A stretch of 64,000 bases of DNA, from contig JABHXU010000011.1 in assembly GCA_018657065.1 (NCBI GenBank), positions 22,948 to 86,947 of the forward strand, written 5' to 3'. Made by a program: the position numbers and the translations under genes. Source of the DNA: an archaeon. Its GTDB lineage: Archaea > Nanobdellota > Nanobdellia > Woesearchaeales > GW2011-AR15. A model generated the notes under the pieces. That model searched no databases. It was not told where the DNA came from and was given only the letters and a program-made list of their open reading frames with translations. How positions within the stretch are numbered: position 1 is the first letter of the stretch; every line of letters starts with the position of its first letter. Shown one piece after another: positions 11,142 to 30,313 of this stretch.

Positions 11142-11603
11142 TCATCTCTTTAACAATTCTTCTGCTTGTTTTCTAGTTAAAAATTCTATAGGTTGCCATA
11201 ATTCAACATATTTTGATAAGGTTTGTAATTCTGATTTATTAACTGACATCTCAATTTCTGTTTCAAGTTTAACAATATTTTCATTTAACATAGAAACATC
11301 ATTTTTGATACCTGAAATTGTTTCATTTAATGTCCTAATTTCTAAAAATATGTCTTTAGCATCTTTAAGCATGTTTTGTTCAGTAAATTGAGTTTTTTTT
11401 CGTAGACCTGAATATCTTTCTTCAAGTAATCTTAATCGTCTCATAATTTCTTCAAACTGATTAGAAACTGGCTTAGGCATAACCATTGCAGCTTCTTCCT
11501 TCTTAGAAATAGGTTTAGGAATACTTTTTTCATCCTTTTTTGGCTCAATTCCATTTGGAACTGGTTTTTTTTCTTCTACAGGTGGTTTTTTTAGAAAGCT
11601 CAT
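11142..11603 (-). CDS. Pilus-locus coiled-coil protein
   Basis: 153-aa ORF with a Lys/Pro-rich N-terminus and a long heptad-like helix. It is the first gene of the minus-strand pilin operon and is divergent from the ATPase gene. Confidence 0.45.
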   Translation of the reverse strand: MSFLKKPPVEEKKPVPNGIEPKKDEKSIPKPISKKEEAAMVMPKPVSNQFEEIMRRLRLLEERYSGLRKKTQFTEQNMLKDAKDIFLEIRTLNETISGIKNDVSMLNENIVKLETEIEMSVNKSELQTLSKYVELWQPIEFLTRKQAEELLKR

Positions 11604-13924: not shown

Positions 13925-16900
13925 TTACGGACAATCATTTGGACAAGTACATTCTGTTTCATAACTATCACAAACACTATCGCCACAATTTGAACAAACA
14001 TAAGTCCATTCTGTGAGTCCAGCATCATTACAATCCACATCATATGTTTCTGCAGGTTTAATTGCTGTTAAGTCTTCACAACATTCCTTATCAATATTTG
14101 GGTCCTCAGTTCCTAAGTATGGTGATTTTTCATCGTTTCCAACTTCAATACATTCTGTTGGAGCTGGTGGATCAACACATTCTCCTAATTCACAAATTTG
14201 AGGATCTGTACATGGATTTGTTGTATCATCACAAGGTTCTTCAACACATCTTCCTACTTCACATACAAGTGGCTCGGTACATGGATTAGTTGCATCACAT
14301 TCAGGGTCACTACAAACATTTTCAATACAAATTTTATCCGAAGAACAATCTCCATTATCTACACATTCAACACAATTTCCTTCTGTACAAATTAAGTCAT
14401 CAGTACATGCTGGATCACATGGACTTGAACAATCTTCAGGACAGTTACATTCACTTTCCCAATCTTCACATACATTATTTCCACAACTTGAACAAATATA
14501 TGTTATATTTTCTGTTTCAGTTTGTTCACATGAATCATCAAAAATATCTGTAGGTAAAAGAGTATCCAATCCTTCACAACATTCTTTGTCTTTGTTAGGA
14601 TCATCATCACCTAAATCTGGTGTTTTTTCATCTTGTCCTTCAGAAATACACATATCATCTGAAACACATTTTCCATCAATACAACTTGATCCATCTGAAC
14701 AGTCTGATGAATTATTACACCCACTTATACAAGCAGCCCAGAAATTACCATATTCTCCGCCTCTACTACAACAATTGGCAGAATCTCCTCCACATTCTTC
14801 AACTGTTCCACATTTCATAAACCATGGATCTGGCGCACATACTAATAATCCATAGTAATTTTCACCATCAATTTCTTCTTCTAAACAAGCTGCTCCTTCA
14901 TCTATAGTTCCGTCACTTTCAACACATTCAAAATCAGTTTCAAGATCTTTTACATCAAAGCCTTCACTTAATCCTTTATAGATATAGTTTGTGCCTGCAT
15001 TTGAAAAAGTAGTTTTTGTTGATCCAAGCTCAGCCCCTTCACAAGTTTGATATGTAGCTACAAAATTTCCCTTACCTACTTGTTTTCCAAGATTTTGAAA
15101 CAAAATTCTACTATCTGTACAAATTCCAGAACTAAATCCTCCACCTCCACTAGATCCAGAACATGAATCTATTGGATTCTCATTTTTTGATACTTGATTA
15201 AATAAATCTGTTCCAACACAATTATTCGAACACATCTCTTTTGACCATGAATAATCACTTAATTCACTATATCCCTCTCCTACATGGAATGGAATAATAG
15301 CTAATACTCTTTGATCATTTGTCCATTTTTCATATGCTCTAGTTACATCATCAACATAATCGTCAACATTAAAACTTGGTAATTCTTTATACACTTCATA
15401 TGGATGAGGTGCCCAAGCCATTTCAGTAATCAAAATTTTTCCTTCACATAAATCTTGAGCTGGACATTCTTCTGGATTTCTTTGGATTCCTGCAATATTA
15501 GGACATAAATCAAAATCATCTTCATCACAAGGATACCCTTCTCCATCAGAATCATCATCTCTTTGCAAAGGATTAGGATAATTAACACAATTGTCACAAG
15601 CATCTCCAACATCATCTTGATCTTCATCATTTTGATTTGGATTAACTATTGATGGACAATTATCAACAATACAATCTCCTGTTCCTAGTTCTGATTGTTT
15701 ACATATTTTTGAAGCTGGAAAATCTGAAACACTATCTCCATCAATATCTTCACAATCATCTCCAATATCATTATGATCTCTATCTCTCTGATCATAATTT
15801 GCAATATTTACACAATTATCACAGACATCTGGCATACCATCTTCATCTGTATCTGTTTCATCTGTAACAACTTGATTTGATCCAGGACATAAATCTTCTG
15901 AATCCATGATTCCATCTCCATCTGAGTCATCACAAACGTCTCCTTTACCGTCTCCAGTCCAAGCATCCCAATCTTCTTGAAGTGGATTGGCATCATTAGG
16001 ACAATTATCTTCATAATCAATTACACCATCTGCATCTGCATCTGTTACATCAGGTGCAGTACATTTTAAATCTTGAAGATCTGTACAATAAGAAGAAACT
16101 TTAGCAAACCTAGCTTCATATGCTTGCGCTCCAAAAGGATCGTCTCCCCCTGGATAAGTCATATCATCTGGATCTGGATAAGTATGATCTGCATAAAGAT
16201 CTAAATAATTACAAATCTCATTATTATTATATGAATATATTGTTTCAATAAATTCATCAGGATGTACTTCAGTTATTTTTTCAAAACAATAAGTGTTGAA
16301 TGTATCTAAGATTCTTGTTCTTATATTTTTGGCAACTGTAAATGCTTTAGAATTATCTGATGCTTTGTTTTTATCAGGAATACTATCAACATTACAATAA
16401 GTGCTTGGATCTAGTTCTAATAAATGATCTATATCAATATCTTCAAACACATATCTATAGTCAAATCCTAGATAAAATGATAACCAACTTTTCATTTCCA
16501 TAAAAAATGGTTTTTCTACTCTTAAACAATCCAAATATGCTTCTTCTTTGTCAGTTATATCATGAGTTCCTGGTGTTGGTCCACAAATTTTATCATCTTG
16601 TACCGTACATGTAGAATCACAACACCCAGGACAATAATCTTTCCCTTTGTCATTCAATGCACTTCCATCAAAACAAAGACCATAATCTCCATGATCTGGC
16701 ACTTCAGGTAATTCTTCAGCTGTGCAATAATTATTATCATCAACTAAATAATTATACATTTCATAAAGGGCATCACAACTTTTCTTCATGAAAAATCCGT
16801 CACCCCAATCTTCAATTTTATAAGTAAAAGCTTCATCATGATATTCTTTAGAAGATGCCGGAGTTAATCTACATTCTTTCATTCCTAAAGTTGGTGCTAA

Positions 16901-18415
16901 TCCTGCAGGAAGCAATTTAATTGATCCTGAATGATCTACACCTGAAAAACTATCAAGTTCTTCTTTTACTGCTTTTCCTACTTCTACATAATATTTTGCA
17001 TATTCAATTATTTCATAATTTGTTAAAGAAATATTATGCCATTCAACTGCTAAATTTGGTTCATCTCCTATTTCTATATATATAGGCCATTGAGGTTTAT
17101 CTTTATGAATTTTATCAAGTAAACTTAAAATGTACCAAACAGGTGTTTCATCTGTTGATGAATCTCCATAATCATAAGACGGTAGTGCTCCACCATCTTC
17201 ATTTTCACCATAATAACAATCTAATGAATAGGAATCACATGATGAATCTTCTCCAATATATTCTTCATGTTTACAAAATGATTTTGCATTATTACAGATA
17301 CCTGGATGTGTCCAATACTCTGTAACTCTATTTTCTTTAGGAGGTAATACTTCTCTTAAATTAATTATTGGAGTCAATTCCATATCATATAATTTATCAA
17401 AAATTTCTTTGTAAAAATCTAATTCATTATCGGTAAATGCTTCATTATGAACAACTACTTTAACAAATCCACATGCACCTGAAAAATTATATGCACAATT
17501 AAGATTTTTATCAACTCTACCGACAACACCAGTTTCAACAAGTTCATCCCACATAACTTGCATACCATATTTATTAGCCCCATGACAAGTTGCTCCCCAT
17601 TCAGACAGATGAGTTGTTGCTGCAATAACTTTATTTTTTTCAACATCTGCAGAGCTAGGTAATGTTTCCCAGTGATCATTATCTAAAAATACTATTTTAA
17701 ATGCTTGCTCTTTTGCTAAATGTGAAACATGTTCATCTTCATATCTAATAGTTAAAAATGCATTTGGACTAAATGTAACGTGTGGACTAAATTCATACTT
17801 TACTCTTCCTAGAATTGCTGGATCATCTGGACACATTTCTTTTAAGTATAAACTTATCTTATTTCCACCTTCAACAGTTGTGCCTTTAGGAATTTTAAGT
17901 TCCAAATCTAAATCTGATGAAATTAAAGATTGTTCTCTTTGAAGAACTCCATCACTCAAATCTAAAGACAATGTTTTAGTTCTTGGCAATTTGAAAGTTC
18001 TATCAAAAAATTCAATTCTAGTGTCTTTTTTCAAGATAATTGGATAGTAAACATAGGCATAAATCTCATCATCTCTTATCTCAACTTCAACTTCGTCTGG
18101 CTTATCTTCTGCTGTAACAATATATTTTTGTTCTTCAAAATTAGAAAAATTCATACACCCATATATTTCAGACTCTATGTTTTGTTTAAATGGTTTTGAA
18201 TCACATATACCTTCTTCATCTATTGTTCGTAGAACAATTGAATAAATACAATCATCCATTGATTTTTCTAGATAATCAGATGAAAACTCGAGTAAAGGAG
18301 GTTTATTATTGACTATATTATCTATAGGATTTTGACTTATATAAATAAGACTTCCTACTAGTGCTACTAATACCAAACCGAGAATAACATATACAGTAAT
18401 TTGAGATTTTGCCAT
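13925..18415 (-). CDS. Giant (1496 aa) cysteine-rich surface protein: pilin-like N-terminus, ZU5-like module, GH clan-A-like motifs interrupted by thrombospondin type-3 repeats, duplicated Cys-knot C-terminus
   Basis: Uninterrupted 4.5-kb ORF. N-terminus MAKSQITVYVILGLVLVALVG; the ZU5-like module ends in THLSEW. GH-A-like motifs are VVHNEAF, IEIGDEPNL, ADHTYP and ILITEMAW. Residues ~788-975 hold D.D.DG..D..DNCP...NP.Q.D repeats. The C-terminus has two copies of a ~75-aa Cys-rich module. Confidence 0.85.
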   Translation of the reverse strand: MAKSQITVYVILGLVLVALVGSLIYISQNPIDNIVNNKPPLLEFSSDYLEKSMDDCIYSIVLRTIDEEGICDSKPFKQNIESEIYGCMNFSNFEEQKYIVTAEDKPDEVEVEIRDDEIYAYVYYPIILKKDTRIEFFDRTFKLPRTKTLSLDLSDGVLQREQSLISSDLDLELKIPKGTTVEGGNKISLYLKEMCPDDPAILGRVKYEFSPHVTFSPNAFLTIRYEDEHVSHLAKEQAFKIVFLDNDHWETLPSSADVEKNKVIAATTHLSEWGATCHGANKYGMQVMWDELVETGVVGRVDKNLNCAYNFSGACGFVKVVVHNEAFTDNELDFYKEIFDKLYDMELTPIINLREVLPPKENRVTEYWTHPGICNNAKSFCKHEEYIGEDSSCDSYSLDCYYGENEDGGALPSYDYGDSSTDETPVWYILSLLDKIHKDKPQWPIYIEIGDEPNLAVEWHNISLTNYEIIEYAKYYVEVGKAVKEELDSFSGVDHSGSIKLLPAGLAPTLGMKECRLTPASSKEYHDEAFTYKIEDWGDGFFMKKSCDALYEMYNYLVDDNNYCTAEELPEVPDHGDYGLCFDGSALNDKGKDYCPGCCDSTCTVQDDKICGPTPGTHDITDKEEAYLDCLRVEKPFFMEMKSWLSFYLGFDYRYVFEDIDIDHLLELDPSTYCNVDSIPDKNKASDNSKAFTVAKNIRTRILDTFNTYCFEKITEVHPDEFIETIYSYNNNEICNYLDLYADHTYPDPDDMTYPGGDDPFGAQAYEARFAKVSSYCTDLQDLKCTAPDVTDADADGVIDYEDNCPNDANPLQEDWDAWTGDGKGDVCDDSDGDGIMDSEDLCPGSNQVVTDETDTDEDGMPDVCDNCVNIANYDQRDRDHNDIGDDCEDIDGDSVSDFPASKICKQSELGTGDCIVDNCPSIVNPNQNDEDQDDVGDACDNCVNYPNPLQRDDDSDGEGYPCDEDDFDLCPNIAGIQRNPEECPAQDLCEGKILITEMAWAPHPYEVYKELPSFNVDDYVDDVTRAYEKWTNDQRVLAIIPFHVGEGYSELSDYSWSKEMCSNNCVGTDLFNQVSKNENPIDSCSGSSGGGGFSSGICTDSRILFQNLGKQVGKGNFVATYQTCEGAELGSTKTTFSNAGTNYIYKGLSEGFDVKDLETDFECVESDGTIDEGAACLEEEIDGENYYGLLVCAPDPWFMKCGTVEECGGDSANCCSRGGEYGNFWAACISGCNNSSDCSDGSSCIDGKCVSDDMCISEGQDEKTPDLGDDDPNKDKECCEGLDTLLPTDIFDDSCEQTETENITYICSSCGNNVCEDWESECNCPEDCSSPCDPACTDDLICTEGNCVECVDNGDCSSDKICIENVCSDPECDATNPCTEPLVCEVGRCVEEPCDDTTNPCTDPQICELGECVDPPAPTECIEVGNDEKSPYLGTEDPNIDKECCEDLTAIKPAETYDVDCNDAGLTEWTYVCSNCGDSVCDSYETECTCPNDCP
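15491..16054 (-). repeat. Thrombospondin type-3-like Ca-binding repeat array (coding, within the 1496-aa protein)
   Basis: DADADGVIDYEDNCPNDANPLQED, DSDGDGIMDSEDLCP, DTDEDGMPDVCDNCVNIANYDQRDRD, DNCPSIVNPNQNDEDQDDVGDACDNCVNYPNPLQRDDDSDG. Confidence 0.75.
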
Positions 18416-18439
18416 TTTAGGTAATTTTAACGAATGATG

Positions 18440-19129
18440 CTATTTAAATTTTTCCAGAATTAGTATGTTTCCACGACCTTTTTTTATTTTTTTAAGTTTT
18501 CCTTCAGTTTCAAGTTCTGTTATCATCAAACTAATTTTTGCTTCTGATAATGCAAAATGTTTTCTTAACTCTCTTTGTGACATTCTTCCTTGATTTTTTT
18601 TAAGAAGTTGAATTATTTTATTCAAATCATCATCCATAAGGTTTAAATGTTTTTTTAGTCTAATTGTTTGGATTTTTTTATTTATTTGAATAATAATAAA
18701 AGAAAAAACTCCCATCAAAAAAATAATTAAAAAAAACAAATTCAAATATTTTATTTCTCTATCATCAAGCCCTTCTATTTCTAAATCTAAGTTATTATAA
18801 ATTGATTCTTCTTCACTTAAATCTTGAAATAAAAATAAATCAATAACATATATTCCTTCATCAATTATAGAAATATTTTCAATTGCCTTAAGTTCATTTT
18901 TCTGAGCAGAAAGTTTATAGTCTCCAATAGGAATTTCAAATTCATAACTCCCATCTTTTGATAAAAATTTTTGAGATGGATTTGAGTCAATAATAATTAG
19001 AACATCTTTCGTTTTTGATAATGTTGAATCATAAATTGATCCATATAATGTTGCCCCATAGGTAATATTTACAAGAAGAATTGCCAAAATAAAAGACAAT
19101 AATTTTTTCATTATTAAAAAGTCAGACAT
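18440..19129 (-). CDS. Membrane-anchored winged-helix regulator with extracellular prealbumin/carboxypeptidase-regulatory-like domain
   Basis: Signal peptide, then a beta-sandwich-like segment (LYGSIYD...DGSYEFEIPIGDYKL). A TM helix follows (LFFLIIFLMGVFSFIIIQI). The C-terminal wHTH is MSQRELRKHFALSEAKISLMITELETEGKLKK. Confidence 0.65.
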   Translation of the reverse strand: MSDFLIMKKLLSFILAILLVNITYGATLYGSIYDSTLSKTKDVLIIIDSNPSQKFLSKDGSYEFEIPIGDYKLSAQKNELKAIENISIIDEGIYVIDLFLFQDLSEEESIYNNLDLEIEGLDDREIKYLNLFFLIIFLMGVFSFIIIQINKKIQTIRLKKHLNLMDDDLNKIIQLLKKNQGRMSQRELRKHFALSEAKISLMITELETEGKLKKIKKGRGNILILEKFK

Positions 19130-19161
19130 TAACTTATAAAAATCTTTCTTTCAAAATTTAA

Positions 19162-20457
19162 TTATGAGAGTTTTATTGAATCTAAATATACTAAAAGTTC
19201 GTTTAAACTTGTAAACACTTCAAATAATGTTTCTTGCTTAGAAAAATTATTTTTATAAATATTATCGTATTGAGCTAAAAGTGGGTTATAAAACCCGTCT
19301 AAATTCAAAAGCAATATTGGTTTTTTAGTTTTACTTGTTTGATTAATTAATATCGAATTATGAAGTTCTTCTAATGTTCCAAAACCTCCAGGTAAACAAA
19401 CAATGATGTCAGATCTATTAATTAATACTCTTGTTCTTCTTCTTGAATTCATAACTGAAATTGTTCTACATTTTTTAAAAACATTTTTATCTGTTTTTGC
19501 AAACACAGAAATTAGTTTTCCATTATATTTTAATACTGAATCTGCTAAATTTTTCATCATTCCTGAATCTTGTCCTCCAAAAAATATTTTAGCATCTCTT
19601 GCAACTAATTCTTTCCCTAGTGCATTTGCCAAATCCAAATATTTTTCATCAATATTATTTTGAGATGAACAAAACACACTAACTCTTTTTCCTAGAATCT
19701 TTCTAATAAACATAAGTACTCTTTTCTTTTTTTGAACTTTTGGATGATAATAGTAATAATTATACCCTTCAAAACTACCTTTTTTCATAGATTTTTTTAA
19801 AATTTTATTATCTTCATTAATTAATTTCATAGAAAAAGCAACAACTTTTTTTTCTATTTTTTCTATCCACCAACCACATATAACAATTTTGTATTTTTGA
19901 CTAATTAATCCTACTGTTCCTTTAGTATGTCCTGGAAGATGAATAATTTTGAAATCTGTATCTTTAATTGTTTCTCCTTCTTTAACAAATGAACCTAGTT
20001 TCCACTCCTTATAACCCGCTTCTTTATAGACCTTTTCTATCCCATGTTCATATACATTTAGAATTTTTTTTGATCCTGAGTCCATTTTATGGAGTCTTAT
20101 TGGAGGAATATTTCCAAACTTCTTTTTTATTCTAATTTGAAGTTCTGGAGCTAATTCAGAATGATCGTAATGAAAATGTGAAAAAATAATCTCTCTAACT
20201 GTTTTACCTGGAAAATATTTTTCTAAAGTTTGCATAATTAAATCATCATTATTTAGATTTTTTGAAAACTTCCTAAACATTGGTCTAAATGCTTTAAATT
20301 TTGGACCAGTATCAAATACAACAATTTTTTTTTTTGCATTAATTAAATAACACCAAGTTCCAAATTCAGGATATTTACTAACAGGAAGATTATATTTTAA
20401 AAGAACTCTAGCTACCTTAATTTCTCCTTTATCTTCTAATATAATCTCTGAAATCAT
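19162..20457 (-). CDS. Fusion protein: metallo-beta-lactamase-fold hydrolase (N) + LOG/TIGR00730-family domain (C)
   Basis: MBL motifs SHFHYDHS and LPGHTKG. LOG-family motifs GGQDSGMMKNLAD and PGGFGTLEEL. Confidence 0.75.
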   Translation of the reverse strand: MISEIILEDKGEIKVARVLLKYNLPVSKYPEFGTWCYLINAKKKIVVFDTGPKFKAFRPMFRKFSKNLNNDDLIMQTLEKYFPGKTVREIIFSHFHYDHSELAPELQIRIKKKFGNIPPIRLHKMDSGSKKILNVYEHGIEKVYKEAGYKEWKLGSFVKEGETIKDTDFKIIHLPGHTKGTVGLISQKYKIVICGWWIEKIEKKVVAFSMKLINEDNKILKKSMKKGSFEGYNYYYYHPKVQKKKRVLMFIRKILGKRVSVFCSSQNNIDEKYLDLANALGKELVARDAKIFFGGQDSGMMKNLADSVLKYNGKLISVFAKTDKNVFKKCRTISVMNSRRRTRVLINRSDIIVCLPGGFGTLEELHNSILINQTSKTKKPILLLNLDGFYNPLLAQYDNIYKNNFSKQETLFEVFTSLNELLVYLDSIKLS

Positions 20458-20479
20458 TTTAAAAAAAAGAAAAAAATAA

Positions 20480-23400
20480 TTAATTTAAAAGTATAGTTGT
20501 GCTATCAACAAAATCTGAATCTAAAGTTAAAAAATCTGCTGACGCTCTTCTTTCAACACCACCATCATTAATTGTAACAAAGAGTACACCATAATTAAAA
20601 GCATTATTAATTGTAGTTGTACAATCTTTTACAACCTCTGTTTCATCTCTTAAATAATAGTTTTCAGTGAAAATTGTTGACCACCAAGTATCTGTATCAT
20701 GAAGTGCACAATCATACATATCATTACCTACACCACCTAAACCAGACATAAATATCATTGTTTTTCCTGGTTCAAGTAATTCAGTAACAATTGGTGTTAT
20801 TGGATTTAAGCTGCTTAACATTTTTGTTCTAGCATATGCTTTATCATATCCTGTAACAATTAATGCTCCTGCTTCTCTACATAAATCATAATAACTAACT
20901 CCTAAATTGTCTACCTCTTCTTTGTTACTAATTCTTAGATCTTTATTTGCTTTATTCCAGATACAAAATTTCCAATCATGGTCTGTTTGCAATGAATCAT
21001 TAATAAAATCATCATGGTCTTGTGTTCCATATGTTGTTCCTACACCAGAAACCACAAATGAAATTCCTTTAAATTCACAAGTCATTTGATCTCCTGTTTC
21101 ACCTGTACAAACTAAATCATCATCAAAACTACTTTCAATGTCTGATTTATAATCTTCCCACTCAGCCACATCATAAATTCCAATTGAAGAAATAAACGGA
21201 ATTTCTAAATAACTCATCATGTCGGACCAATCATCATATGAATCAAATCCTAAGTTTCCATTTAATACAATTAAATCTGGACTTTCATCCATTAATAATT
21301 GAACAACATCTTCACTTGTTTGATTATATCCTTGATTACCTAAGAAAGCAATTACAATTTCTTCAGGTAATACTGATTCGTAATTACAATCATTATTATT
21401 GAATTTTTCATCAGCTTCACATAATGCTTCACCATATGCATTGATATGAGGATATTCAACTCTATTTGTTTCATTATATGGATAAAAGATCATACCATGA
21501 TAATCTTGAGATAAGATATCCTTAGCTGTTAAATTAATCCAATCTGCATCCTTTCCAGTTATATCAACCATTGGAATAATTTTTACAGTTGTATTAATGT
21601 CAAGTAATTCATCTCCTCCATAATAATCAAATAAAACAATATCTGTGAATGTTTCATTTTCTGCAAGTTTTTGAGCAGCACATTCTTTTGTCATGTATGT
21701 AATTAACGGAATTTCTGTTAGTTCATGATATTCATCATATAGTGCTGTTAAATTAGTGTCTTCACTACAATCTAAATCAAGTAACCAGTAACCAATAATT
21801 TCACTCAAATCAACAATTGTTTCTGTTAAATTTGTATCTTGATCATAGTCTAGTTTAATAAACCAATCATAATCACTAGTTGTAACTATTGTATTATCTT
21901 CTGCATAGTATCCTAGTGCTGGTGCATCAAATTCAACAGTCATATCTGGAGTTACTCCATAGAATCCTACAATAGGTTTAACATCATATGTTGGTTCTAA
22001 TTCTTCGCAGACATTATCTTCATTACACATATATCCTTCTTCACAATCTTCGTCTGTTTCACAGGTCTCAATTTCCTCACAAAGATCATCTTCATTACAT
22101 ATATAACCTTCTTCACAGTCTTCATCTGTTTCACAAGATTCATTAACACCTAAAAGATCTTTGATTTTTTCATATGGAATAAAAATATCAGGTTTAAATC
22201 CATCTGTTTGTGTTTGACTTTCCACAAATACCCAACATCTTCCTGATAGCATTTGAGCGTCATCCATAATAAGAACTTCTGTTCCACCAGGTAAATCTCC
22301 AAATGAATCACAATATTTCTTATCTCTTGTATCAAGGGTTTCTTTTGTTGTAACTCTTTGCCCTACAAATTCACTTACATCAAATTCTGTACATGCTCCA
22401 CTTGATTCACTACACGGAGCACCCCTACCTCCTCCACCTTCACCTGCTGCACATACTCCTTCTTTACATGTTTGACCTTCTGGACAAGTACTATCATCTG
22501 TGCAAGTAACAGTGCCTCCTCCGCCACCACCATTTCCTAAAGGATCTTCAGGATCAAAATCATCTAAACATAGTCCTTCATTTGTTGGATCAACTCCACC
22601 AATCATTCCGGTTATTCCCACTACTTTTCCTGATAAAAGTCCTTTTCCTTGTCTACATGGACAATCATCACCTGAAGAAATTTGAAATGTTCCGTCTACA
22701 CAATGTAAACAATCTTCCTTACCAAAACTTACATAACAACCTTCAATTGCACATTTTCCACCCTCAGTTTTATCAAAACAAGCAGCAGGATCTGAGACTG
22801 GATCATCTCCTTCTTTTTCAGCTGGTTTAGTTGCAAGACTATATACTGGATGTGTTAACCCTTCTTTTTCACCACATAAAAAACATTCTCCACCCATATA
22901 TAATGGATCTTCTAAATTTTCACAATTATATTCCATTTTAACACTTCCTACACCAGCAAGTGCTACTTCTGCTCCACCATTAATACACACTTCTTCTGTT
23001 GATTCTTCTGAATTAACAACATATAAATTAAAATCTAATGTTGGACTATTTGCTTCACCTGGTTTTAATTGTCCTTTTGGAATCATACAATTATCTGCTT
23101 CACAAATAGGTGTAATTAAAATTGCTGGACCATCATCATCTGAAATTATTTCACATGTTTCACCTAGTGCAGAAGTTAAACATTCAATATTAGTAAATGT
23201 TTTTTCAGAAGTTTTTCCTCCATCAGGATCATAAATACATGAATCTCCACTATCCTGAAATAAAATTTCAACATTAAAAATTGCATTTGGTTTATTTAGT
23301 AATGTTCCTGGTAATGACCCATCATTTTCCTTAAATCCAAAATATATTGCTTCACAAGTAATTTTTTCAGCAACAGAATCATCAAGGCAATACCTAGCAC

Positions 23401-24697
23401 TTTCTAAAGGACATTCCTCTTTGCAAAGAGTCATAATTTCATCAAAGTTACCTGGGTCTGGTGTTGGTAATGCACTTGGATCTTCAGGATCATAATCATA
23501 TTTTTTTATACAATCTTTATAATATGCTCCAGCATATTTTTCTGTTAAATCAAGATTACCAAGATCTGAAGGAAGTATATATGCACTCATTGGTTCAGGA
23601 TCATCTGCTTTTCCTATTACTTCACTTAAACTCTTAGCTTTTTTATATATTGACCAGACTACACTTGGCCCATTACCAAAACCCTCACATTCAAATCCAT
23701 CAGGAATTTCTACATTTGGTCCTCCACTTGTTTTTGCAGGCATCCATTCAGTTTTTTCCATAGTCCAGCCTTCGCATCCAATAACATGAGGATAAATAAC
23801 ATTATCTAGTGTAATTGTTCCGCCAGTTCCTTTTCCACATTCAGTAACAGTAGCAAAAGGTGTAAAATGTTTAATCTCTGCAGTTAATTTTCTTTTTTCA
23901 AGATCAACTTCAGTAGGTATACCTATCCAAACATCTAGTAAATCATCATAGTAACCTATATTAACATCATCTCCTTGATGAAATAAACCTAAATCTTCTT
24001 CTCTAAAATACTTAATAATTTTAACAGGTTGACTAAAAACAGTATTATGAGGAATTCCATTAAAAGCAAGCATTCCTGCTACAACAGAATTACTTAATGC
24101 ATTAAATTCTCTATCAAGTTGTTTGATTCCAATTTTATCAACTGGTTGACCATTAACTGTTGCTGTTGTTCCAGGTGGAACTTCCAAAATCATAGAACCA
24201 TCAGCACTGACAACTCTAGTTGTTTTAGATGGGTCAAGAGTTTCCATTACAGTTCTAGGTAATCTATATGTTTGTCCTTCAAATCTAAGAAGGGTATCTT
24301 TTTTCTTAAATTCCATGGGATATTCAATTACAGCTACTAATGCTTCTTGTTCGATAACAACTTCAATATTTAGCACTCCATATTTTGCTTTATAACTTCG
24401 TTCTTTAGCAAAAGAATCAATACAAGGTTGTAAATTTTGTCTTATATGTTCCTCAATATAATAAGGAGAATAATCTCTTCTAAGCCCATACTTAAGCTCA
24501 GCATCAATTATATTTTGTTTTACACATTCGTAAATCAAAGACTGAAGTGAACTTTGTTTAGGTCCCATTTCAAAAACGTATTCTGAATCTGAAAGAATTG
24601 AATCTTGTGTTGTTTGTCTAATAATAAAAAAACTACCAAGAATTATTACAACTAATATTCCAATAATAACATATAAACTAACTTGTGCTTTCCTCAT
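20480..24697 (-). CDS. Giant (1405 aa) cysteine-rich surface protein: pilin-like N-terminus, ZU5-like module (HFT), Cys-rich mosaics, degenerate purple-acid-phosphatase-like C-terminal domain
   Basis: N-terminus MRKAQVSLYVIIGILVVIILG. ZU5-like segment LEVPPGTTATV...FSQPVKI...IGYYDD..DVW...KHFTPFATV. A Gly run and tandem CETDEDCEEGY.CNED..CEE units are present. The C-terminal motifs are FLGNQG, LNGNLGF, CIWNKAN and VTGYDKAYAR. Confidence 0.85.
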   Translation of the reverse strand: MRKAQVSLYVIIGILVVIILGSFFIIRQTTQDSILSDSEYVFEMGPKQSSLQSLIYECVKQNIIDAELKYGLRRDYSPYYIEEHIRQNLQPCIDSFAKERSYKAKYGVLNIEVVIEQEALVAVIEYPMEFKKKDTLLRFEGQTYRLPRTVMETLDPSKTTRVVSADGSMILEVPPGTTATVNGQPVDKIGIKQLDREFNALSNSVVAGMLAFNGIPHNTVFSQPVKIIKYFREEDLGLFHQGDDVNIGYYDDLLDVWIGIPTEVDLEKRKLTAEIKHFTPFATVTECGKGTGGTITLDNVIYPHVIGCEGWTMEKTEWMPAKTSGGPNVEIPDGFECEGFGNGPSVVWSIYKKAKSLSEVIGKADDPEPMSAYILPSDLGNLDLTEKYAGAYYKDCIKKYDYDPEDPSALPTPDPGNFDEIMTLCKEECPLESARYCLDDSVAEKITCEAIYFGFKENDGSLPGTLLNKPNAIFNVEILFQDSGDSCIYDPDGGKTSEKTFTNIECLTSALGETCEIISDDDGPAILITPICEADNCMIPKGQLKPGEANSPTLDFNLYVVNSEESTEEVCINGGAEVALAGVGSVKMEYNCENLEDPLYMGGECFLCGEKEGLTHPVYSLATKPAEKEGDDPVSDPAACFDKTEGGKCAIEGCYVSFGKEDCLHCVDGTFQISSGDDCPCRQGKGLLSGKVVGITGMIGGVDPTNEGLCLDDFDPEDPLGNGGGGGGTVTCTDDSTCPEGQTCKEGVCAAGEGGGGRGAPCSESSGACTEFDVSEFVGQRVTTKETLDTRDKKYCDSFGDLPGGTEVLIMDDAQMLSGRCWVFVESQTQTDGFKPDIFIPYEKIKDLLGVNESCETDEDCEEGYICNEDDLCEEIETCETDEDCEEGYMCNEDNVCEELEPTYDVKPIVGFYGVTPDMTVEFDAPALGYYAEDNTIVTTSDYDWFIKLDYDQDTNLTETIVDLSEIIGYWLLDLDCSEDTNLTALYDEYHELTEIPLITYMTKECAAQKLAENETFTDIVLFDYYGGDELLDINTTVKIIPMVDITGKDADWINLTAKDILSQDYHGMIFYPYNETNRVEYPHINAYGEALCEADEKFNNNDCNYESVLPEEIVIAFLGNQGYNQTSEDVVQLLMDESPDLIVLNGNLGFDSYDDWSDMMSYLEIPFISSIGIYDVAEWEDYKSDIESSFDDDLVCTGETGDQMTCEFKGISFVVSGVGTTYGTQDHDDFINDSLQTDHDWKFCIWNKANKDLRISNKEEVDNLGVSYYDLCREAGALIVTGYDKAYARTKMLSSLNPITPIVTELLEPGKTMIFMSGLGGVGNDMYDCALHDTDTWWSTIFTENYYLRDETEVVKDCTTTINNAFNYGVLFVTINDGGVERRASADFLTLDSDFVDSTTILLN
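21995..22138 (-). repeat. Two tandem 72-nt (24-codon) coding repeats
   Basis: SCETDEDCEEGYICNEDDLCEEIE / TCETDEDCEEGYMCNEDNVCEELE. At the DNA level cattac recurs at 22021 and 22093, giving a 72-nt period. Confidence 0.8.
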
Positions 24698-24831
24698 TAA
24701 ATACCCACCTAGAAACTACATCAGTATATGACCTATATAAATTTAATGAAAATCTAAAAAAAGATTTTCAAAAGTTTAGAAATATAACTCTTCAAAACTT
24801 ATTATAAAAATAAAAAATTAAGAAAAAAAAA

Positions 24832-27800
24832 CTATTTTGTTATTTCAAAAGTATCAATTATTTCATTGTTAATTGTAATGAATTCTCCTTTTGCAATATT
24901 AGGATCATCATCATAATTAAAAGTTATAAATAACGCTCCAGGTACAAAACTCGGAACTACATCATTTTCACAATGTTTTAAATTGGAATCTTTTGTAATG
25001 AATGCGTTTGATGTGTAAATAGCATCCCACCAATTATCTGTATCATGAAGTGTACAATCATATTGAGTTGCACCATGTCCACCTAAACCAGATATTAATG
25101 ACACTGTTCCTTTACTTAGATCTAAGTTATCTTGCGTAGTTATTGGATCTAATGTTGCAAGAAGTTTTGTTCTTGTATAAGCTTCATCATATCCACTTAC
25201 AATAATGGCTCCTGCATTTTTACATAAATCATAATATTTCATTCCTAGATCATCATTATCATCTTTTGCACTAATTCTTAGATCTTTGTTTGATTTATGC
25301 CAATTACAAATAACCCATTCATTTCCTTCTTGCAATGAATCAGTAATAAATGCTTCATGTCCTTGTGTCATGAAATCAGTTCCAACACCTGAAAGAATAA
25401 AAGAAACACTATCATAAACACATGTTTGTTTATTTCCATAAATTCCTTTACATTCTAATTCATTTGTCCATGGTTCAAGAACTACTGAATAATCTCCCCA
25501 ACTTTCATTTAGAAATTCTTCTTGTCCTATAACTGCAACAAATGAAATATCTTCTGAAAGATTATTTTTTAACATTTGTTCAAATTCTACAGGTCTTGCT
25601 TTGTAACCTAAATTACCTAGGTGTACTACAACGTCAGCATCTTCTTCTGTAATTAATTCTAACACTTTTTGAGCATATGCTTCTGTTCCTGAATTACCTA
25701 TAAATGCAACTCTAATTTCATCAACATCAATTGGTTCAAATTCACATTCTTCGCCTAAATAATATTGTTCAGCTTCACAAAAGAATTCTAAAAATGTATT
25801 TTTATAATCAATCTTATTAATTACTTTATCAAGTTCATCATAAGGATAAAAAATAACTCCATGATATTTTTTATTTAATGTTTCCATTGCTAGATCTTTA
25901 ATTTCATCAGGTTCCATTACTTTTGAACCAGATTCCATTACATTAACCATTGGAATAAATTTGATATAATGACTTGTCATTTTTAAGATATCTTTTACTT
26001 GATCAACATCATTATCTGGACTATCTGATTCAAATAACACAACATCTACAAATTGTTCATCTGTGTCATCAAAAAATTCTTCAGCACATCCGAGTGTTCT
26101 AAAGTTAATCATCACTGGAATTTCTTCATTTGATATAACAAACATATTGTATAATTCAACTAAATCTTTAGCACTTATATCCCATTTATCTTCATTACAA
26201 GGATCATCTAAAATTAAATATCCTTTAACTGAACTATCATCATAAATAATATCATCAAATTGAATGTCATCAAAATCAATTTCTTCATGCCTTTCAAATT
26301 TAGTATCATCTAACGCTATAAATAATTCAAGTCCTTCATCATCCAAATTTAAGTCTTCTGAATTATCTTCGTCATAATAACCTGCGGTTACTGCACCTAG
26401 ATCATCTACTTGTCTAAATTGTTCTTCTAGAACAGGATAAAAACCAAGCATGACTGAAATTTCTCTAGGGTCTTCTCCTGTAAATTCTGTAACACATTTT
26501 CCTTCTTGACATAAACAATTTCCTTGTCCACAGTCTAAAGTATCTGGAACACATTCTTGTGTGCAATCGACTGCTGAACAATCTGGCGCAGCGTCAACAT
26601 GTGTGCATGAATCTGCATGACAACAAGTTGCAGGAACACAATCCTCATCACTTGTACATTCTGGAATTTCTATACAAATCCCTTCTTCACCACAATAATA
26701 ATCTTCTTCACAATCATCACTTGATTCACATGTTTGTGATAAATCTATAAACTCTTCAATGTCACTAAACATTGCATAAAATTCAGGTTCATCTCCATCA
26801 TAAATTTCTAATGCTCTTAAAAAAAACCAACAAATTTCTTCTCTATAAGCTGAATCTAAAATTTCAAGTTCAACATCATAACTAAATTCAAATGCATCTG
26901 GATATTTTCCTTTTTCTTCACTTGCCCCAAAACTATCTCTAAATTGTCTATCTCTAATAATAAATGATTCTCCTTCAAGAACTTTAAAAATTGCCCCCAT
27001 ATAATTATCAAAGTCATCAGGACATTGATCATATTCTTTAGGTTCATCATCTCCATCTGGAACACATGCACCATCCTTACATTTTTCATCTGCTGCGCAA
27101 TCTTCGTTAGTTGTACATCCAATTGGTTCAGGTTCTCCTGGTAAAGGAGTTTCAATTGGTGGAATAGGTTCAACTGGTGTTAATGGTGATAATGGTGCAA
27201 TTGGAAATCCTCCTGTATTAGGAAATTGAGGTGTTGTATCAATCGCAGAGCCATCTGAAGTCAATGTTGCTTCCCATAAACATTGTGTTTCAAAAGAATC
27301 ATAAGGTCCACTTGAGCCTGTTGTACCTCCACTTCCATCTGAAGGCACACATTTCTTCTCTTTTAATTCACATCCTGGTGCACTATCACAACCATCTAAA
27401 TTATCAAACTCTTTTGTAAATTGATTACAATCTTCTTCAACTGCTACTTCGGGTTCTTCTCCTGATTCATCTGGATCTATTTTGGCTATCCTATCACAGT
27501 ATGCAAATCCTGAATCTCCTTTGCAAACAGTCCCGATAGGACAGATTTTACATTGTCCATCTGGATTTGTTTTACCATTTTTTTTATCACATATTTTTCC
27601 ATTTGAACTTTTACATACTGAATCAGTATAAAGCAGAGTTTCACAATATGCAAATTTATATTCTCCTAAACATTTACACACATTGTCTTGTGAGGTATCA
27701 ATGTGCTCAATATTAGTTGATGCCGCACACTCAGACCAAGTCATTTCCTTACCAGGGTCAAATTTATCTACTTCAGCATTTACTGATACCAAAAAAATAG

Positions 27801-27846
27801 TGAAAATTAAAACAAAAATATAGCTCTTAAGTGTTCTCGATTTCAT
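24832..27846 (-). CDS. Giant (1004 aa) secreted cysteine-rich protein with Sec-type signal peptide and degenerate purple-acid-phosphatase-like C-terminal domain
   Basis: Signal peptide IFVLIFTIFLVSVNAEV, Cys-rich N-terminal half and a Pro-rich linker. The C-terminal ~540 aa are collinear with the 1405-aa protein (YHGVIFYPY, AFIGNSG, HLGNLGY, VIGQEEF, CNWHKSNKDLRIS, VSGYDEAYTR). Confidence 0.85.
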   Translation of the reverse strand: MKSRTLKSYIFVLIFTIFLVSVNAEVDKFDPGKEMTWSECAASTNIEHIDTSQDNVCKCLGEYKFAYCETLLYTDSVCKSSNGKICDKKNGKTNPDGQCKICPIGTVCKGDSGFAYCDRIAKIDPDESGEEPEVAVEEDCNQFTKEFDNLDGCDSAPGCELKEKKCVPSDGSGGTTGSSGPYDSFETQCLWEATLTSDGSAIDTTPQFPNTGGFPIAPLSPLTPVEPIPPIETPLPGEPEPIGCTTNEDCAADEKCKDGACVPDGDDEPKEYDQCPDDFDNYMGAIFKVLEGESFIIRDRQFRDSFGASEEKGKYPDAFEFSYDVELEILDSAYREEICWFFLRALEIYDGDEPEFYAMFSDIEEFIDLSQTCESSDDCEEDYYCGEEGICIEIPECTSDEDCVPATCCHADSCTHVDAAPDCSAVDCTQECVPDTLDCGQGNCLCQEGKCVTEFTGEDPREISVMLGFYPVLEEQFRQVDDLGAVTAGYYDEDNSEDLNLDDEGLELFIALDDTKFERHEEIDFDDIQFDDIIYDDSSVKGYLILDDPCNEDKWDISAKDLVELYNMFVISNEEIPVMINFRTLGCAEEFFDDTDEQFVDVVLFESDSPDNDVDQVKDILKMTSHYIKFIPMVNVMESGSKVMEPDEIKDLAMETLNKKYHGVIFYPYDELDKVINKIDYKNTFLEFFCEAEQYYLGEECEFEPIDVDEIRVAFIGNSGTEAYAQKVLELITEEDADVVVHLGNLGYKARPVEFEQMLKNNLSEDISFVAVIGQEEFLNESWGDYSVVLEPWTNELECKGIYGNKQTCVYDSVSFILSGVGTDFMTQGHEAFITDSLQEGNEWVICNWHKSNKDLRISAKDDNDDLGMKYYDLCKNAGAIIVSGYDEAYTRTKLLATLDPITTQDNLDLSKGTVSLISGLGGHGATQYDCTLHDTDNWWDAIYTSNAFITKDSNLKHCENDVVPSFVPGALFITFNYDDDPNIAKGEFITINNEIIDTFEITK

Positions 27847-27847
27847 T

Positions 27848-30313
27848 TTATGGCACCTCCTCAGTTGTAGGTGGATTTAAATTATCAGTCACCGCTGTAG
27901 GAAATCCATTATTTTCTGTTGTTGCAGGTAATGTTGCTTTAGATAAACAATCACAATTATCTGCATCAATTATTTCAACTTCACCATATAACGGGTTGCT
28001 TCCAGGTTTACAAAATACACAATTAGGTTCATTTGTAGGATTTGGATAAGTTTTACCTATAACTGATGCTGCACAAATTTGATTATTATAATTTAAACAA
28101 GTTGTTGAATCTGTTGTAGGTCTCCAAATATATTTAACTATTTCTTCTTTTGCCGCATCTGGTGCATTAGCTGCATCATCTTTACAACTACTTCCTGCTT
28201 TATTACAAATTTGTCTTAAACAGCTACTACAAAAACCTTTTACATAATCGATTTTTCCAACTAATTCTGCATTACAAAGCAAACTATGATCTGCTTTAAC
28301 TCCTGTCCCCATAAAATTTATCTCTGCACTTCCCTGAATACATGCATCAGGATCAGATCCATTATTTTCTACTTCTAAAAAGAAATATATACGAGGATTT
28401 CCTGCACCTGTTTCATCAAAATACGCGCTTCTAATAGCACAATCATCTTCACTTAAACATTTTGGAACAATTTCTACATTAAAAGTATCTTTATAATTTC
28501 CATCTGTTTGATTTAAACGTTTAACAGGAACTATTTGAGGAAACCTATCTCCTTTTTCTACTGAACTTGATTCTGTAGAAGGAATTTGAGAAGTCCAATC
28601 ACTATAACTTAAAGATGTACCTGTTGGTGGTTGCTGTGAATTTGTTCCCTGACTAGCTACACAAGCATTTCCATTTTTTTCAAATTCTATTTGATAATAA
28701 CCTCTTCCCATAAGCCCAACTTCTGGTTCCGAAGGATCTGGTCGTTTCCAAGTTCCATCTATATTTTTATTTGTCTTTGCATATTTATATGCTTTTAAAC
28801 TTCCTAAATAACAAAATGAAACTTCTCTACTATCTTTCTCTGCAAAAGCATAACATGTTCCTTCACAAACTGATTCACAATCACTTGTTTTTGCAAATAT
28901 TTTTTTGTTATCTGGAGTTATTAAATCTTTAATTTTAAGATATGTAACTATATTTTCAACATAAGTACAGTCAGTCACAGTAGAGTCATCAACGATTGAT
29001 CCATCTGGACACTCAATAGTGCCTTCATCAACTTCACTTAAACTATATCCTTCATCAAAAATTGTTAAATCATCTAAGGTTAATTCTCTTTCAACAACTT
29101 CGCAAGTTAATATATGCTGCTTTATTATTTTTTCATTCCACAATGTTTTAGCAGCTTCATCATCTTCATCCCATTTCACATCTGAACCATCAACATCTAT
29201 TAATTTTTCAATTTCATTGTCTGTACTTTCTTTAAAAACAAGCTCTATCATTTCATTTCTTTTAGCTGCATACTCAACAAAATCAATATCATCTTTAATA
29301 TCATCTTCATTTTTATATAATTCACCTAGACCTTCTGCGGTTCCTTCATTCCAACCTTCACAACCACCACCAACTTTGTTATCACAAATTTGTTTAACAA
29401 TTGTAGGTGTTGCTACACTTGTTATAGGTTCATCTTTTCCACCACAATTAATAGTTATTCCGTAAACAGAAAAGTGATTTGTATATGCAGTCATTTTATT
29501 TACTTCTGAATCAACAACTGTAGGAAGACCAACCCAAATTCCAATTGTATCATGGTAATAACCAATCTTCAAATTTTCTTCATTAATAAAAGGTGGAACA
29601 TCTATATCATCATAATATGCTATAACTTTTACCGGTTTAGAAAATGAGACTCCATGAGGTGCAGCGTAAAACGCTCTTCTTCCTAGAAGTACAGAATTAG
29701 ATAGGCCATTAAAGTGTTTATCAAGATTTTTTAAAGTTATTTCCTCAACTTCTTCATCACCTACATATGCCTTTGTTCCAGGTTCAATTTCAATCACAAA
29801 TCCTCCATCAGTTGAAGTAATTAGAGTTGTTTTGTCTGGATTAATATCTTCAGTCACAGATCTAGGTAAAGTATAAGTTGTATCATCATGATTAAGTTTT
29901 AATGTTCCTCTTGACATTCTAACTTCATAGTTTAATTCAACAATAAGTGCGTTATTTGTAAGAATAGCGTTAGCCTTTGGGTCTTTAGATGTCACGTCAA
30001 AATTTTGTTCTTCAAATGCATTAAAATTATCTAAACATTCTGGCATAGAATACTCAACATATGCAGCAATAGGTGCTATTGAAGCTTTTTTATCTAAACC
30101 AAACCGTTTTTCCGCTTCAATAGTAGATATCTCAATACAATGTTCTACATATGCATCAAGAAAATCTTGATCAAGTTTTGCGTCTCCAGATCTTATACGC
30201 TCAATATCAAATTCTGTTTTTGAATTATCCATCCTAAGAAGGATTAGTGTTCCAACAATAATAACTATAATCAACCCAATTATTACAAATAGACTTACTT
30301 GTGACTTTTTCAT
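27848..30313 (-). CDS. Giant (821 aa) cysteine-rich surface protein: pilin-like N-terminus, ZU5-like module (HFS), Cys-rich C-terminal region
   Basis: N-terminus MKKSQVSLFVIIGLIIVIIVG. The first ~330 aa are collinear with the 1405-aa protein (YTLPRS..., IEIEPGTKAYV, FSKPVKVIAYY, IGYYHD.IGIW, NHFSVYGI, GCEGWNEG). Confidence 0.85.
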   Translation of the reverse strand: MKKSQVSLFVIIGLIIVIIVGTLILLRMDNSKTEFDIERIRSGDAKLDQDFLDAYVEHCIEISTIEAEKRFGLDKKASIAPIAAYVEYSMPECLDNFNAFEEQNFDVTSKDPKANAILTNNALIVELNYEVRMSRGTLKLNHDDTTYTLPRSVTEDINPDKTTLITSTDGGFVIEIEPGTKAYVGDEEVEEITLKNLDKHFNGLSNSVLLGRRAFYAAPHGVSFSKPVKVIAYYDDIDVPPFINEENLKIGYYHDTIGIWVGLPTVVDSEVNKMTAYTNHFSVYGITINCGGKDEPITSVATPTIVKQICDNKVGGGCEGWNEGTAEGLGELYKNEDDIKDDIDFVEYAAKRNEMIELVFKESTDNEIEKLIDVDGSDVKWDEDDEAAKTLWNEKIIKQHILTCEVVERELTLDDLTIFDEGYSLSEVDEGTIECPDGSIVDDSTVTDCTYVENIVTYLKIKDLITPDNKKIFAKTSDCESVCEGTCYAFAEKDSREVSFCYLGSLKAYKYAKTNKNIDGTWKRPDPSEPEVGLMGRGYYQIEFEKNGNACVASQGTNSQQPPTGTSLSYSDWTSQIPSTESSSVEKGDRFPQIVPVKRLNQTDGNYKDTFNVEIVPKCLSEDDCAIRSAYFDETGAGNPRIYFFLEVENNGSDPDACIQGSAEINFMGTGVKADHSLLCNAELVGKIDYVKGFCSSCLRQICNKAGSSCKDDAANAPDAAKEEIVKYIWRPTTDSTTCLNYNNQICAASVIGKTYPNPTNEPNCVFCKPGSNPLYGEVEIIDADNCDCLSKATLPATTENNGFPTAVTDNLNPPTTEEVP

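Follow-up and report, generated by a model that had tools for sequence, protein, structure and literature searches.

The ingredients of the system described here are already known: class III (prepilin-type) signals on non-filament proteins, large adhesins encoded at pilus loci, and release joints of the ZU5 and MAIN type. They appear to come together in a stretch of 64,000 nucleotides, here called the window, from an archaeon of the Woesearchaeales (GTDB lineage GW2011-AR15; NCBI GenBank assembly GCA_018657065.1, contig JABHXU010000011.1, positions 22,948 to 86,947 of the forward strand). Three giant genes of the window, named g1496, g1405 and g821 after the length of their products in amino acids (aa), encode proteins that start like prepilins. 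We favor, with moderate confidence, the reading that the three are precursors in which a carrier of ~275 aa with a prepilin signal is self-cleaved from a variable payload, which it then holds non-covalently.

Class III signals occur outside filaments on the sugar-binding proteins of the Sulfolobus bindosome and on proteases and redox proteins predicted by FlaFind (bioRxiv 10.64898/2026.04.22.720090). The bindosome proteins and the EppA/DUF361 substrates share with the giants a short basic leader, a small residue at position −1, a helix of ~20–24 residues, a linker, and an extracellular domain, together with Gln at +1 and Ser/Thr at +3 (PMC2910488). The giants differ from them in having Phe/Tyr at +5, payloads of 500–1,400 aa, and a head and a ZU5-like domain in front of the payload. 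No SBP family was detected among the window proteins or 40 relatives, and no Bas-like genes were seen. Bacterial modular pilins, such as PilB and PilC of Streptococcus sanguinis, CofB of enterotoxigenic Escherichia coli (ETEC), and GspK, also carry grafted modules on a pilin-type N-terminus and have a predicted tip location (PMC8179133). These belong to another domain of life, use another signal type, and have a demonstrated pilin fold in a covalent single chain, the largest catalogued being 860 aa. In contrast, the giants have a head that matches no pilin, precursors that reach 1,691 aa in the representative set, and a payload that is predicted to be split off by autoproteolysis.

Autoproteolysis at an HFS motif is documented for the ZU5 domain of PIDD and the ZU5-like FIIND of NLRP1 and CARD8, and Zhang et al. 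united these ZU5 domains with the GPS/GAIN and Nup98 domains (PMC3482391, PMC3210808). Autopeptidase domains of the ZU5 superfamily also occupy N-terminal positions in bacterial polymorphic toxins and large surface proteins, and occur with glycohydrolase and adhesion modules (PMC3482391). In the toxins (Zhang et al. 2012), the domain follows Sec or SpvB/TcdB-type export modules and is accompanied by RHS repeats and toxin tips, whereas the ZU5-like domain of the giants is archaeal, stands behind a prepilin-type signal and a head, and is found without RHS or toxin/immunity pairs. Polymorphic toxins were rejected as an identity for the giants because no RHS, toxin, or immunity features were detected in the window proteins or the 40 relatives.

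The microbial GAIN-like MAIN domains are cut between Phe and Ser, as determined by Edman sequencing, and the products stay together; the role proposed for them is force-triggered release (bioRxiv 10.64898/2026.05.12.724683). MAIN proteins resemble the giants, as these are predicted to behave, in the HFS or HX(S/T) cut in a beta-turn, the associated products, and the large adhesive or enzymatic ectodomains on anchored proteins. The order of parts is opposite: MAIN proteins run from signal peptide through payload and MAIN domain to a C-terminal anchor, whereas the giants have an N-terminal anchor, then the cleavage domain, then the payload. This inverted order implies that the beta-sandwich of the cleavage domain would stay with the anchor and not with the payload. 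The top structural matches of the giants are ZU5 and not GAIN domains.

Large DUF2341 and PilY-like adhesins, like g1496, are encoded beside archaeal pilus ATPases, and are predicted to decorate the pilus tip. In the available parts of the two sources (Makarova et al. 2016; a 2026 TFF census), they are not described with a class III signal and a ZU5-like module, and g1496 has no DUF2341 match. A full-text literature search returned no paper joining ZU5 and pilin, so the fusion of a prepilin-type signal with predicted ZU5-like self-cleavage, anchor first and across thousands of DPANN proteins, is new as far as could be established.

A shared N-terminal module

All three genes lie on the minus strand, g1496 at 13925–18415, g1405 at 20480–24697, and g821 at 27848–30313. 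Their precursor open reading frames (ORFs) begin with MAKSQITVYVILGLVLVALVG, MRKAQVSLYVIIGILVVIILG, and MKKSQVSLFVIIGLIIVIIVG, respectively, and each consists of an N-terminal module (N-module) of ~285 aa that is common to the three, followed by a payload, which in g821 comprises 540 aa and is unannotated. These N-termini, described in the initial annotation, are present at their positions in both the ORFs and a six-frame motif scan, and no longer N-terminus is possible because each ATG is the first start codon past the upstream stop. The 1004-aa paralogue g1004 (24832–27846, minus strand) lacks the N-module and a C-terminal anchor, and its Sec-type signal (...FLVSVNAEV) is an ordinary one, as had been recognized. 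It shares its C-terminal ~700 aa with g1405 (32% identity, E = 1e-101), a match that involves the last ~620 aa of the g1405 payload. From 30313 down to 13925, the minus strand carries six close-packed genes in the order g821, g1004, g1405, a 431-aa fusion, a 229-aa DUF7343 protein, and g1496, with g1004 starting 1 nucleotide beyond the end of g821.

BLASTP over ~300 N-terminal residues aligns g1405 with g821 at E = 9e-50, g1405 with g1496 at 8e-24, and g1496 with g821 at 3e-13; as judged from these alignments, the N-terminal likeness of the three giants is homology and not chance. An L-P-R motif and two Cys (C58 and C92 in g1405) are invariant across the three. The conserved Cys pair that had been pointed out extends to the whole family, being near-invariant in 150 family representatives (149/149 and 149/150), while the LPR motif is weaker family-wide.

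The extent of the family is given by an exhaustive search of 1.84 billion representative proteins, for which a profile was built from the three modules. With clusters formed at 50% identity, the module family comprises 5,880 clusters at E ≤ 1e-3, of which 843 reach E ≤ 1e-10 and 204 reach E ≤ 1e-30. The match begins within the first 10 residues in 133 of the 150 proteins listed; the remaining 17 either have a longer leader, with a match from residue 11–19, or have neither signal nor helix and start within the module. Full-length members mostly have ~600–1,700 aa, the longest precursor in the representative set having 1,691 aa; entries below this range probably represent fragments. Mean pairwise identity of the module is about 20–35%, and members stand in tandem pairs or triples at the loci examined. 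A word-indexed protein search misses the family, including the query's own protein. A scan of a genome collection with the three paralogues returned two loci, one from a Woesearchaeota and one from a Chloroflexia with a ZU5-like domain. These sequence results suggest a large unannotated family of DPANN-archaeal surface proteins, in which a conserved carrier module is combined with a fast-evolving payload.

The prepilin-type signal

The giants begin with MAKS|Q (g1496), MRKA|Q (g1405), and MKKS|Q (g821), where the bar marks the predicted class III cut before Q5, and in each a hydrophobic helix of 23 residues follows. The leader of g1496 occupies 18404–18415 and its helix, Q5–S27, 18335–18403; the corresponding positions for g1405 are 24686–24697 and, for the helix Q5–R27, 24617–24685, and the g821 leader lies at 30302–30313 (all minus strand). 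The assignment is based on the family-wide motif, for which residues were counted in the 150 representatives aligned to the family profile, 136 of them with an intact N-terminus. Position −2 is Lys or Arg in 128/136 and −1 is Gly, Ser, or Ala in 134/136. Downstream of the predicted cut, Gln is found at +1 in 126, Ser or Thr at +3 in 121, Phe or Tyr at +5 in 130, and Gly at +9 in 122 of the 136 proteins.

The resulting pattern, [KR]-[GSA]-Q-x-[ST]-x-[FY]-x-x-x-G, is among the best-conserved features of the module; of ~300 module columns, Gln+1 (Q5) ranks 10th and Gly+9 (G13) 12th. Leader length varies from 3 to 22 residues, and the motif is nonetheless kept in register with the helix. The statement that the N-termini behave like class III signals is thus borne out across the family by the position counts and by this constant register. 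The uncharged run after Gln has 21–34 residues with a median of 24, and ≤29 in 146/150 proteins, which is the length of a membrane helix and not of a Sec h-region. A Sec signal was rejected for the module because the uncharged run exceeds the length of a Sec h-region and no cleavage-site pattern follows it.

A six-frame scan of the window for [KR][GAS]Q followed by a long hydrophobic stretch found only the three giants and the small pilin of the locus. Under a looser rule, the scan also picked up a protein with four transmembrane (TM) segments at 1585–1992 (plus strand), in two overlapping starts; this protein has no Gln at +1. The substrates of EppA carry the motif QXSXEXXXL with Q at +1 (PMC2910488); the giants agree with it in Gln+1 and Ser/Thr+3, and have Phe/Tyr in place of Glu+5 and Gly in place of Leu+9. 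A prepilin-like start of the giants is well supported by these sequence patterns, which resemble an archaeal class III signal of the EppA/DUF361-like, Q+1 type with an aromatic residue at +5. Cleavage of the leader by a prepilin peptidase is likely, because a plain topology signal would not need such conservation.

The same N-termini can be read as uncleaved signal anchors of type II membrane proteins, with [KR][GSA]Q conserved for topology or insertion and not for peptidase recognition. A basic N-terminus followed by a hydrophobic segment of 21–29 residues fits this too, a peptidase gene is not found nearby, and there is a weak structural echo of NTF2-like N-domains that are anchored by a TM segment, for instance in PBP2a. 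However, positive charge suffices for topology, which leaves Gln+1, the small residue at −1, Ser/Thr+3, and Gly+9 unexplained, all of them in register behind leaders of 3–22 residues in sequences with only 20–30% identity, and the neighboring small pilin has the same Q+1 site. Signal anchors that are never cut therefore appear quite unlikely to us.

The ZU5-like domain and predicted self-cleavage

Structure prediction for the N-module relies on an AlphaFold2 model of g1405 built with 42 diverse family members, which reaches a pLDDT of 91.1 and a pTM of 0.78. It replaced a poor model from three sequences with a pLDDT of 66 and meaningless Foldseek matches. The modelled elements are a helix at residues 3–70, a second helix at 77–99, a five-strand meander at 103–153, and a beta-sandwich at 160–285. 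In a Foldseek search, the ankyrin ZU5 domains 3kbu, 3f59, 3ud1, and 4d8o are the only significant matches (probability 1.00, E 5e-4 to 3e-3), with a target TM-score of 0.55–0.59 for the single-domain chains 3kbu (3kbu_D) and 3f59. The match table carries no query ranges, and we infer that these matches belong to the 160–285 sandwich.

On this basis, the ZU5-like beta-sandwich of g1405 is placed at ~aa 158–286 (23843–24235, minus strand). The sandwich of g1496 lies at 17585–17962 by homology to the modelled g1405 module and that of g821 at 29450–29842, both on the minus strand. Near its end, each domain has a short motif, H-[FL]-[ST], at which self-cleavage is predicted between the second and third residues. 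The motif is H269-L-S271 with a predicted L|S cut in g1496 (17603–17611), H277-F-T279 with a predicted F|T cut in g1405 (23861–23869), and H280-F-S282 with a predicted F|S cut in g821 (29468–29476). In the g1405 model, it falls in the turn at 278–280 between the last two strands, 270–277 and 281–285. Across 143 family sequences, the first position is His in 140, the second Phe or Leu in 141, and the third Ser or Thr in all 143 (74 Thr and 69 Ser, nothing else). The model and the motif together give a predicted ZU5-like sandwich fold at residues ~158–286 with a predicted autoproteolysis site of the HFS type.

The domain may instead be purely structural or serve in binding, as in ankyrin, so that the proteins would stay single chains. 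The best structural matches are the ankyrin ZU5 domains, which to our knowledge are not autoproteolytic, and likeness to the Pfam ZU5 profile is marginal, with one of 42 members matching (E = 0.0032) and the window proteins having no match. A domain that does not cleave is hard to reconcile with the conservation of H-[FL]-[ST] in 140–143 of 143 sequences, where the third position is always a hydroxyl nucleophile, or with the placement of the motif in a beta-turn ahead of the final strand, where ZU5, GAIN, and MAIN domains that cleave also have it. A bacterial homologue also retains HFT in a MAIN-like architecture. We consider a non-cleaving domain quite improbable.

The bacterial homologue is a 496-aa protein from a Chloroflexia metagenome-assembled genome (MAG; L002, 9296–10786, plus strand). 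Its ZU5-like domain carries the pattern ...LKIGYYD...W..LPTTVD...SHFTTFG. The protein runs from a signal peptide through a payload, the HFT domain, and a CARDB-like region to a C-terminal TM segment, an order that is MAIN-like and opposite to that of the archaeal family.

Predicted processing of the giants

The favored reading, in which a prepilin-signal carrier is self-cleaved from its payload, is built on the motifs, the predicted fold, the size of the family, and the gene contexts, from which all processing steps are predicted. The precursor would enter the membrane through its N-terminal helix. A prepilin peptidase of the A24 family would then cut the leader of 3–22 residues after Gly, Ser, or Ala and expose Gln+1. 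The ZU5-like domain would cut itself between [F/L] and [S/T] by an N–O acyl shift, as in PIDD, NLRP1/CARD8, Nup98, GAIN, and MAIN. The first beta-strand of the payload would remain in the sandwich and hold the payload non-covalently on the carrier of ~275 aa, from which it could be shed, for example, under load. The carrier itself would remain membrane-bound through its helix or, with less certainty, become part of a type IV pilus-like filament or be placed on one. Owing to self-cleavage, the pilin-like part would match an ordinary minor pilin in size, with the giant part as its passenger.

Head domain and gene neighborhood

Between the hydrophobic helix and the ZU5-like domain lie a polar linker and an alpha/beta head. 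In g1496, linker and head occupy 17963–18334 and contain the conserved Cys and an F-K-L-P-R-T motif; in g1405, they occupy 24236–24616 and comprise the rest of the first helix (to aa 70), the helix at 77–99, and the beta-meander at 103–153, with C58 and C92 (both minus strand). The AlphaFold2 model places C58 and C92 on the two head helices, and the two may form a disulfide. A sequence and profile search of the module against the PDB gave nothing significant; the only match, at E = 0.096, covers the helix and is to a fimbrial protein of 70 aa. Homology of the head to the pilin of the locus was considered and rejected, as the profile likeness ends at column 18.

The neighborhood of g1496 contains a cluster with parts of a pilus system. 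A FlaI/TadA-like secretion ATPase of 764 aa with an N-terminal extension of ~300 aa is encoded at 11625–13919 on the plus strand, convergent with g1496. It matches T2SSE at E = 3.5e-14 and the FlaI model at E = 1.2e-41, the latter below the model cut-off, and the BasE model only weakly (E = 4.7e-15, 55 bits against a cut-off of 1000). On the minus strand follow a 153-aa coiled-coil protein (11142–11603), a 246-aa Q/P-rich coiled-coil protein (10357–11097), and a small pilin candidate of 175 aa (9833–10360) that begins with MNKRA|QAAVE... and has the N-terminus MNKRAQAAVETLMIYG. With Gln+1, Glu+5, and a [KR]A|Q site, the last is the small pilin of the same layout that had been noted at the locus, and it has orthologues at the related loci L013 and L014.

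The g1496-type giant, the convergent ATPase of ~760 aa, the two coiled-coil proteins, and the small Glu+5 pilin have the same arrangement in the window, L013, and L014; it is probable in a further contig, the one that holds the relative P0038, which ends early. Identity between the window and these relatives is ~80% for the ATPase, about 69–76% for housekeeping proteins (UppS and DnaG), 36–47% for the small pilin, and 37–44% for the giants. Both L013 and L014 carry a second T2SSE gene and two T2SSF genes ~3 to 7 kb away, which implies that the lineage has a complete filament machine. Makarova et al. describe a nanoarchaeal ATPase clade without findable pilins (PMC4858521). The four-gene set of an ATPase with no adjacent platform gene, two coiled-coil proteins, and a small pilin may be relevant to that clade.

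In L014, a 327-aa protein with a class III-like start, MKNKKG|VFFTFISIFLIIL... (2618–3601, plus strand), is encoded beside the two T2SSF genes and a 495-aa T2SSE gene. This protein is a possible pilin of the second system.

Two further genes of the giant cluster lie between g1405 and g1496 on the minus strand. Immediately upstream of g1496 is a 229-aa membrane-spanning protein (18440–19129). Its extracellular domain lies between a first segment, either signal or TM, and a second TM segment, which is followed by a DUF7343 winged helix in the cytoplasm. In L013, a DUF7343 protein likewise lies directly upstream of the g1496-type giant; the contig that holds P0038 has one near its giant, and none is called in L014. 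The 229-aa protein is a possible regulator of the giant genes that would sense the envelope. The other gene, co-directional at 19162–20457, encodes a 431-aa protein in which a metallo-beta-lactamase fold is fused to a LOG/SLOG ('lysine decarboxylase-like') domain.

Head and neighborhood bear on whether the giants are true modular type IV pilins, in which, once the leader is removed, the helix would be extracted by the adjacent ATPase and polymerized together with the small Glu+5 pilin. In this reading, the first subunit, at the tip, would most probably be the giant, whose payload would thus be displayed where the filament ends. The class III-type [KR]A|Q motif is common to the giants and the locus pilin, and modular tip pilins are established in bacteria (PMC8179133). 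The adjacency of the g1496 type to an ATPase and a pilin is conserved, and one g1496-type relative has DUF2341, a domain that occurs in large adhesins encoded at archaeal pilus loci and predicted to sit at the tip (PMC4858521). The model has a long predicted helix whose C-terminal part packs on the beta-sheet, and the spacing from Q+1 to the first Cys has a median of 52.5 residues. The alpha-1 helix of bacterial pilins has ~53 residues, and the tip pseudopilin GspK has no Glu5, unlike the major pseudopilins. The contrast between the giants, with Phe/Tyr+5, and the small pilin, with Glu+5, may parallel this difference, by analogy only.

Several results count against the carrier reading, the non-cleaving character of ankyrin ZU5 domains among them, and those that concern the head, the linker, and the pilus genes tell against true pilins as well. 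Neither the module nor the N-termini of 38–44 aa have a significant match in Pfam or NCBIfam. Glu+5, a feature of bacterial pilins and of the archaeal DUF361 type that is not universal in archaea, is absent from the giants, where Phe/Tyr takes its place. The initial annotation had described the ~120-aa region behind the helix as consistent in size with a pilin head, a reading that the structure search does not support: Foldseek against the PDB returns no pilin in the top 50 and nothing over the head (~aa 46–155) at E < 1e-3, with only weak matches to NTF2-like and PBP2a N-domains (probability ≤ 0.2). In a comparison of the module with the profile of the small pilin, only the first 18 columns align, at a probability of 7%. 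The polar linker between helix and head has a Gly or Pro in 72% of members and a length that varies by 14 residues, and model confidence drops to a pLDDT of 59 at residues 31–40; for these reasons, a pilin-like continuous alpha-1 is possible, not secure.

On the side of the genes, no A24 peptidase (PF01478-like; no GxGD motif in unannotated multi-TM proteins) was detected in the window, ~3.3 kb to its left, or 7 kb to its right, and no T2SSF platform gene was found in the same range or adjoining the ATPase. An A24 peptidase is present in most archaea with a secretion ATPase, two nanoarchaea being among the exceptions, as Makarova et al. report (PMC4858521). The g1405- and g821-type relatives have no type IV pilus genes within 10 kb of their tandem pairs. 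The UppS, UbiA, DnaG, SurA-like, and HerA-like genes are equally syntenic with the relatives, and adjacency to the ATPase is therefore weak evidence of a functional link, as the whole block, including housekeeping genes, is conserved.

The proposal of giant pilins in the initial annotation thus keeps its prepilin-like start, and loses ground where the head matches no solved pilin, Glu+5 is replaced, and the ZU5-like second half of the module was overlooked. We judge it rather unlikely that the giants are true giant, or at least modular, type IV pilins. The ZU5-like domain shifts the picture from a giant pilin to a carrier of normal size with a detachable giant passenger.

A more specific form of the carrier reading, which we hold to be unlikely, makes the carrier a genuine subunit at the tip of a type IV pilus-like filament in a DPANN archaeon, with the ZU5-like joint as a force-sensitive break point. 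If this were true, interchangeable giant adhesins or lytic enzymes (thrombospondin type 3, GH25, C25) would be displayed on the filament tip. The payload, held by one inserted beta-strand, could remain on a host cell, making the pilin–ZU5 combination a 'harpoon with a detachable head'. It would also be the first autoproteolytic joint within a pilin.

Payloads and module-free giants

The payloads of the family have 500–1,400 aa, are acidic and Cys-rich, and mostly lack annotation. In g1496, a region of thrombospondin type 3 repeats at ~aa 790–970 (15506–16048, minus strand) matches TSP_3 at E = 1.4e-11 and has COMP and thrombospondin as PDB matches, and Cys-rich repeats lie toward the C-terminus. 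The protein contains 6.3% Cys and 21% Asp plus Glu (D+E); the ranges for the giants of the window are 3.3–6.3% Cys and 17–22% D+E, and none of them has a C-terminal TM segment. No annotation and no PDB match were obtained for the payloads of g1405 and g821. Pfam on the 40 relatives finds TSP_3 in seven and the GH25 muramidase in three (best E = 3.5e-44), with one case each of DUF2341, CARDB, fn3, and peptidase C25.

The GH25 payloads (3/40 members, among P0004–P0144) and the one C25 peptidase are archaeal surface proteins bearing a bacterial cell-wall hydrolase. In a relative's locus, L008, a DsbB gene (19250–19765, minus strand) lies ~0.4 kb downstream of the tandem family pair, a position that fits disulfide formation in Cys-rich extracellular proteins of the family.

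Besides g1004, two more giants just past the right end of the window have ordinary Sec signals and no module. Since g1004, which has the payload of g1405, and the other module-free giants use Sec, the signal, head, and ZU5-like domain appear to travel as one unit. At the right edge, a 771-aa ORF (61551–63866, minus strand) makes up the C-terminal part of a Laminin_G_3 giant of 1686 aa, which has a Sec signal. Next to this giant comes an S8 peptidase of 1244 aa (L016, 11654–20705), and these genes form a second cluster of giant surface proteins without the prepilin-type module.

Other features of the window

The window has a G+C content of 25–35% and carries housekeeping genes for an archaeal DnaG-type primase, UppS, RNase J, aminoacyl-tRNA synthetases, and gyrase A. 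The same contig is also present in the NCBI assemblies GCA_018649325.1 and GCA_018651755.1 and in many metagenome assemblies, and all named copies of the four giants (g1004 included) are labelled 'hypothetical protein [archaeon]'. Together with the family member from a Woesearchaeota, this suggests an archaeon of the DPANN type. An Rfam match to '6A RNA' at 36367–36428 (plus strand) scores 41.3 bits against a gathering threshold of 41.2 and is probably spurious, because it is at threshold and within a coding region, the radical-SAM/HhH ORF at 36199–37284. A 149-aa ORF without a family match (40516–40965, minus strand) adjoins tRNA-Arg and ends in a motif that contains Cys, CNANKEGSIYYNKNNKHFFGCDGTSWKRLD. 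A tandem pair of paralogous membrane proteins, each of ~245 aa (57235–57978 and 58055–58786, plus strand), has no family assignment, and one of them has a weak rhodanese-like C-terminal match (E = 0.003).

Significance

The module offers an account of how a protein of 800–1,500 residues can have a pilin-like start: after self-cleavage, only ~275 residues would be pilin-like. It defines two precise predicted processing sites per protein. Two ideas, that modular pilins serve as carriers and that ZU5/GAIN/MAIN joints serve for release, would thereby be extended to archaea and united in a single protein. The life of DPANN archaea is one of attachment to other cells, and the carrier module may bear on how they attach and feed. 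A carrier module common to so many of their surface proteins would provide a single handle on the surface display repertoire of these organisms.

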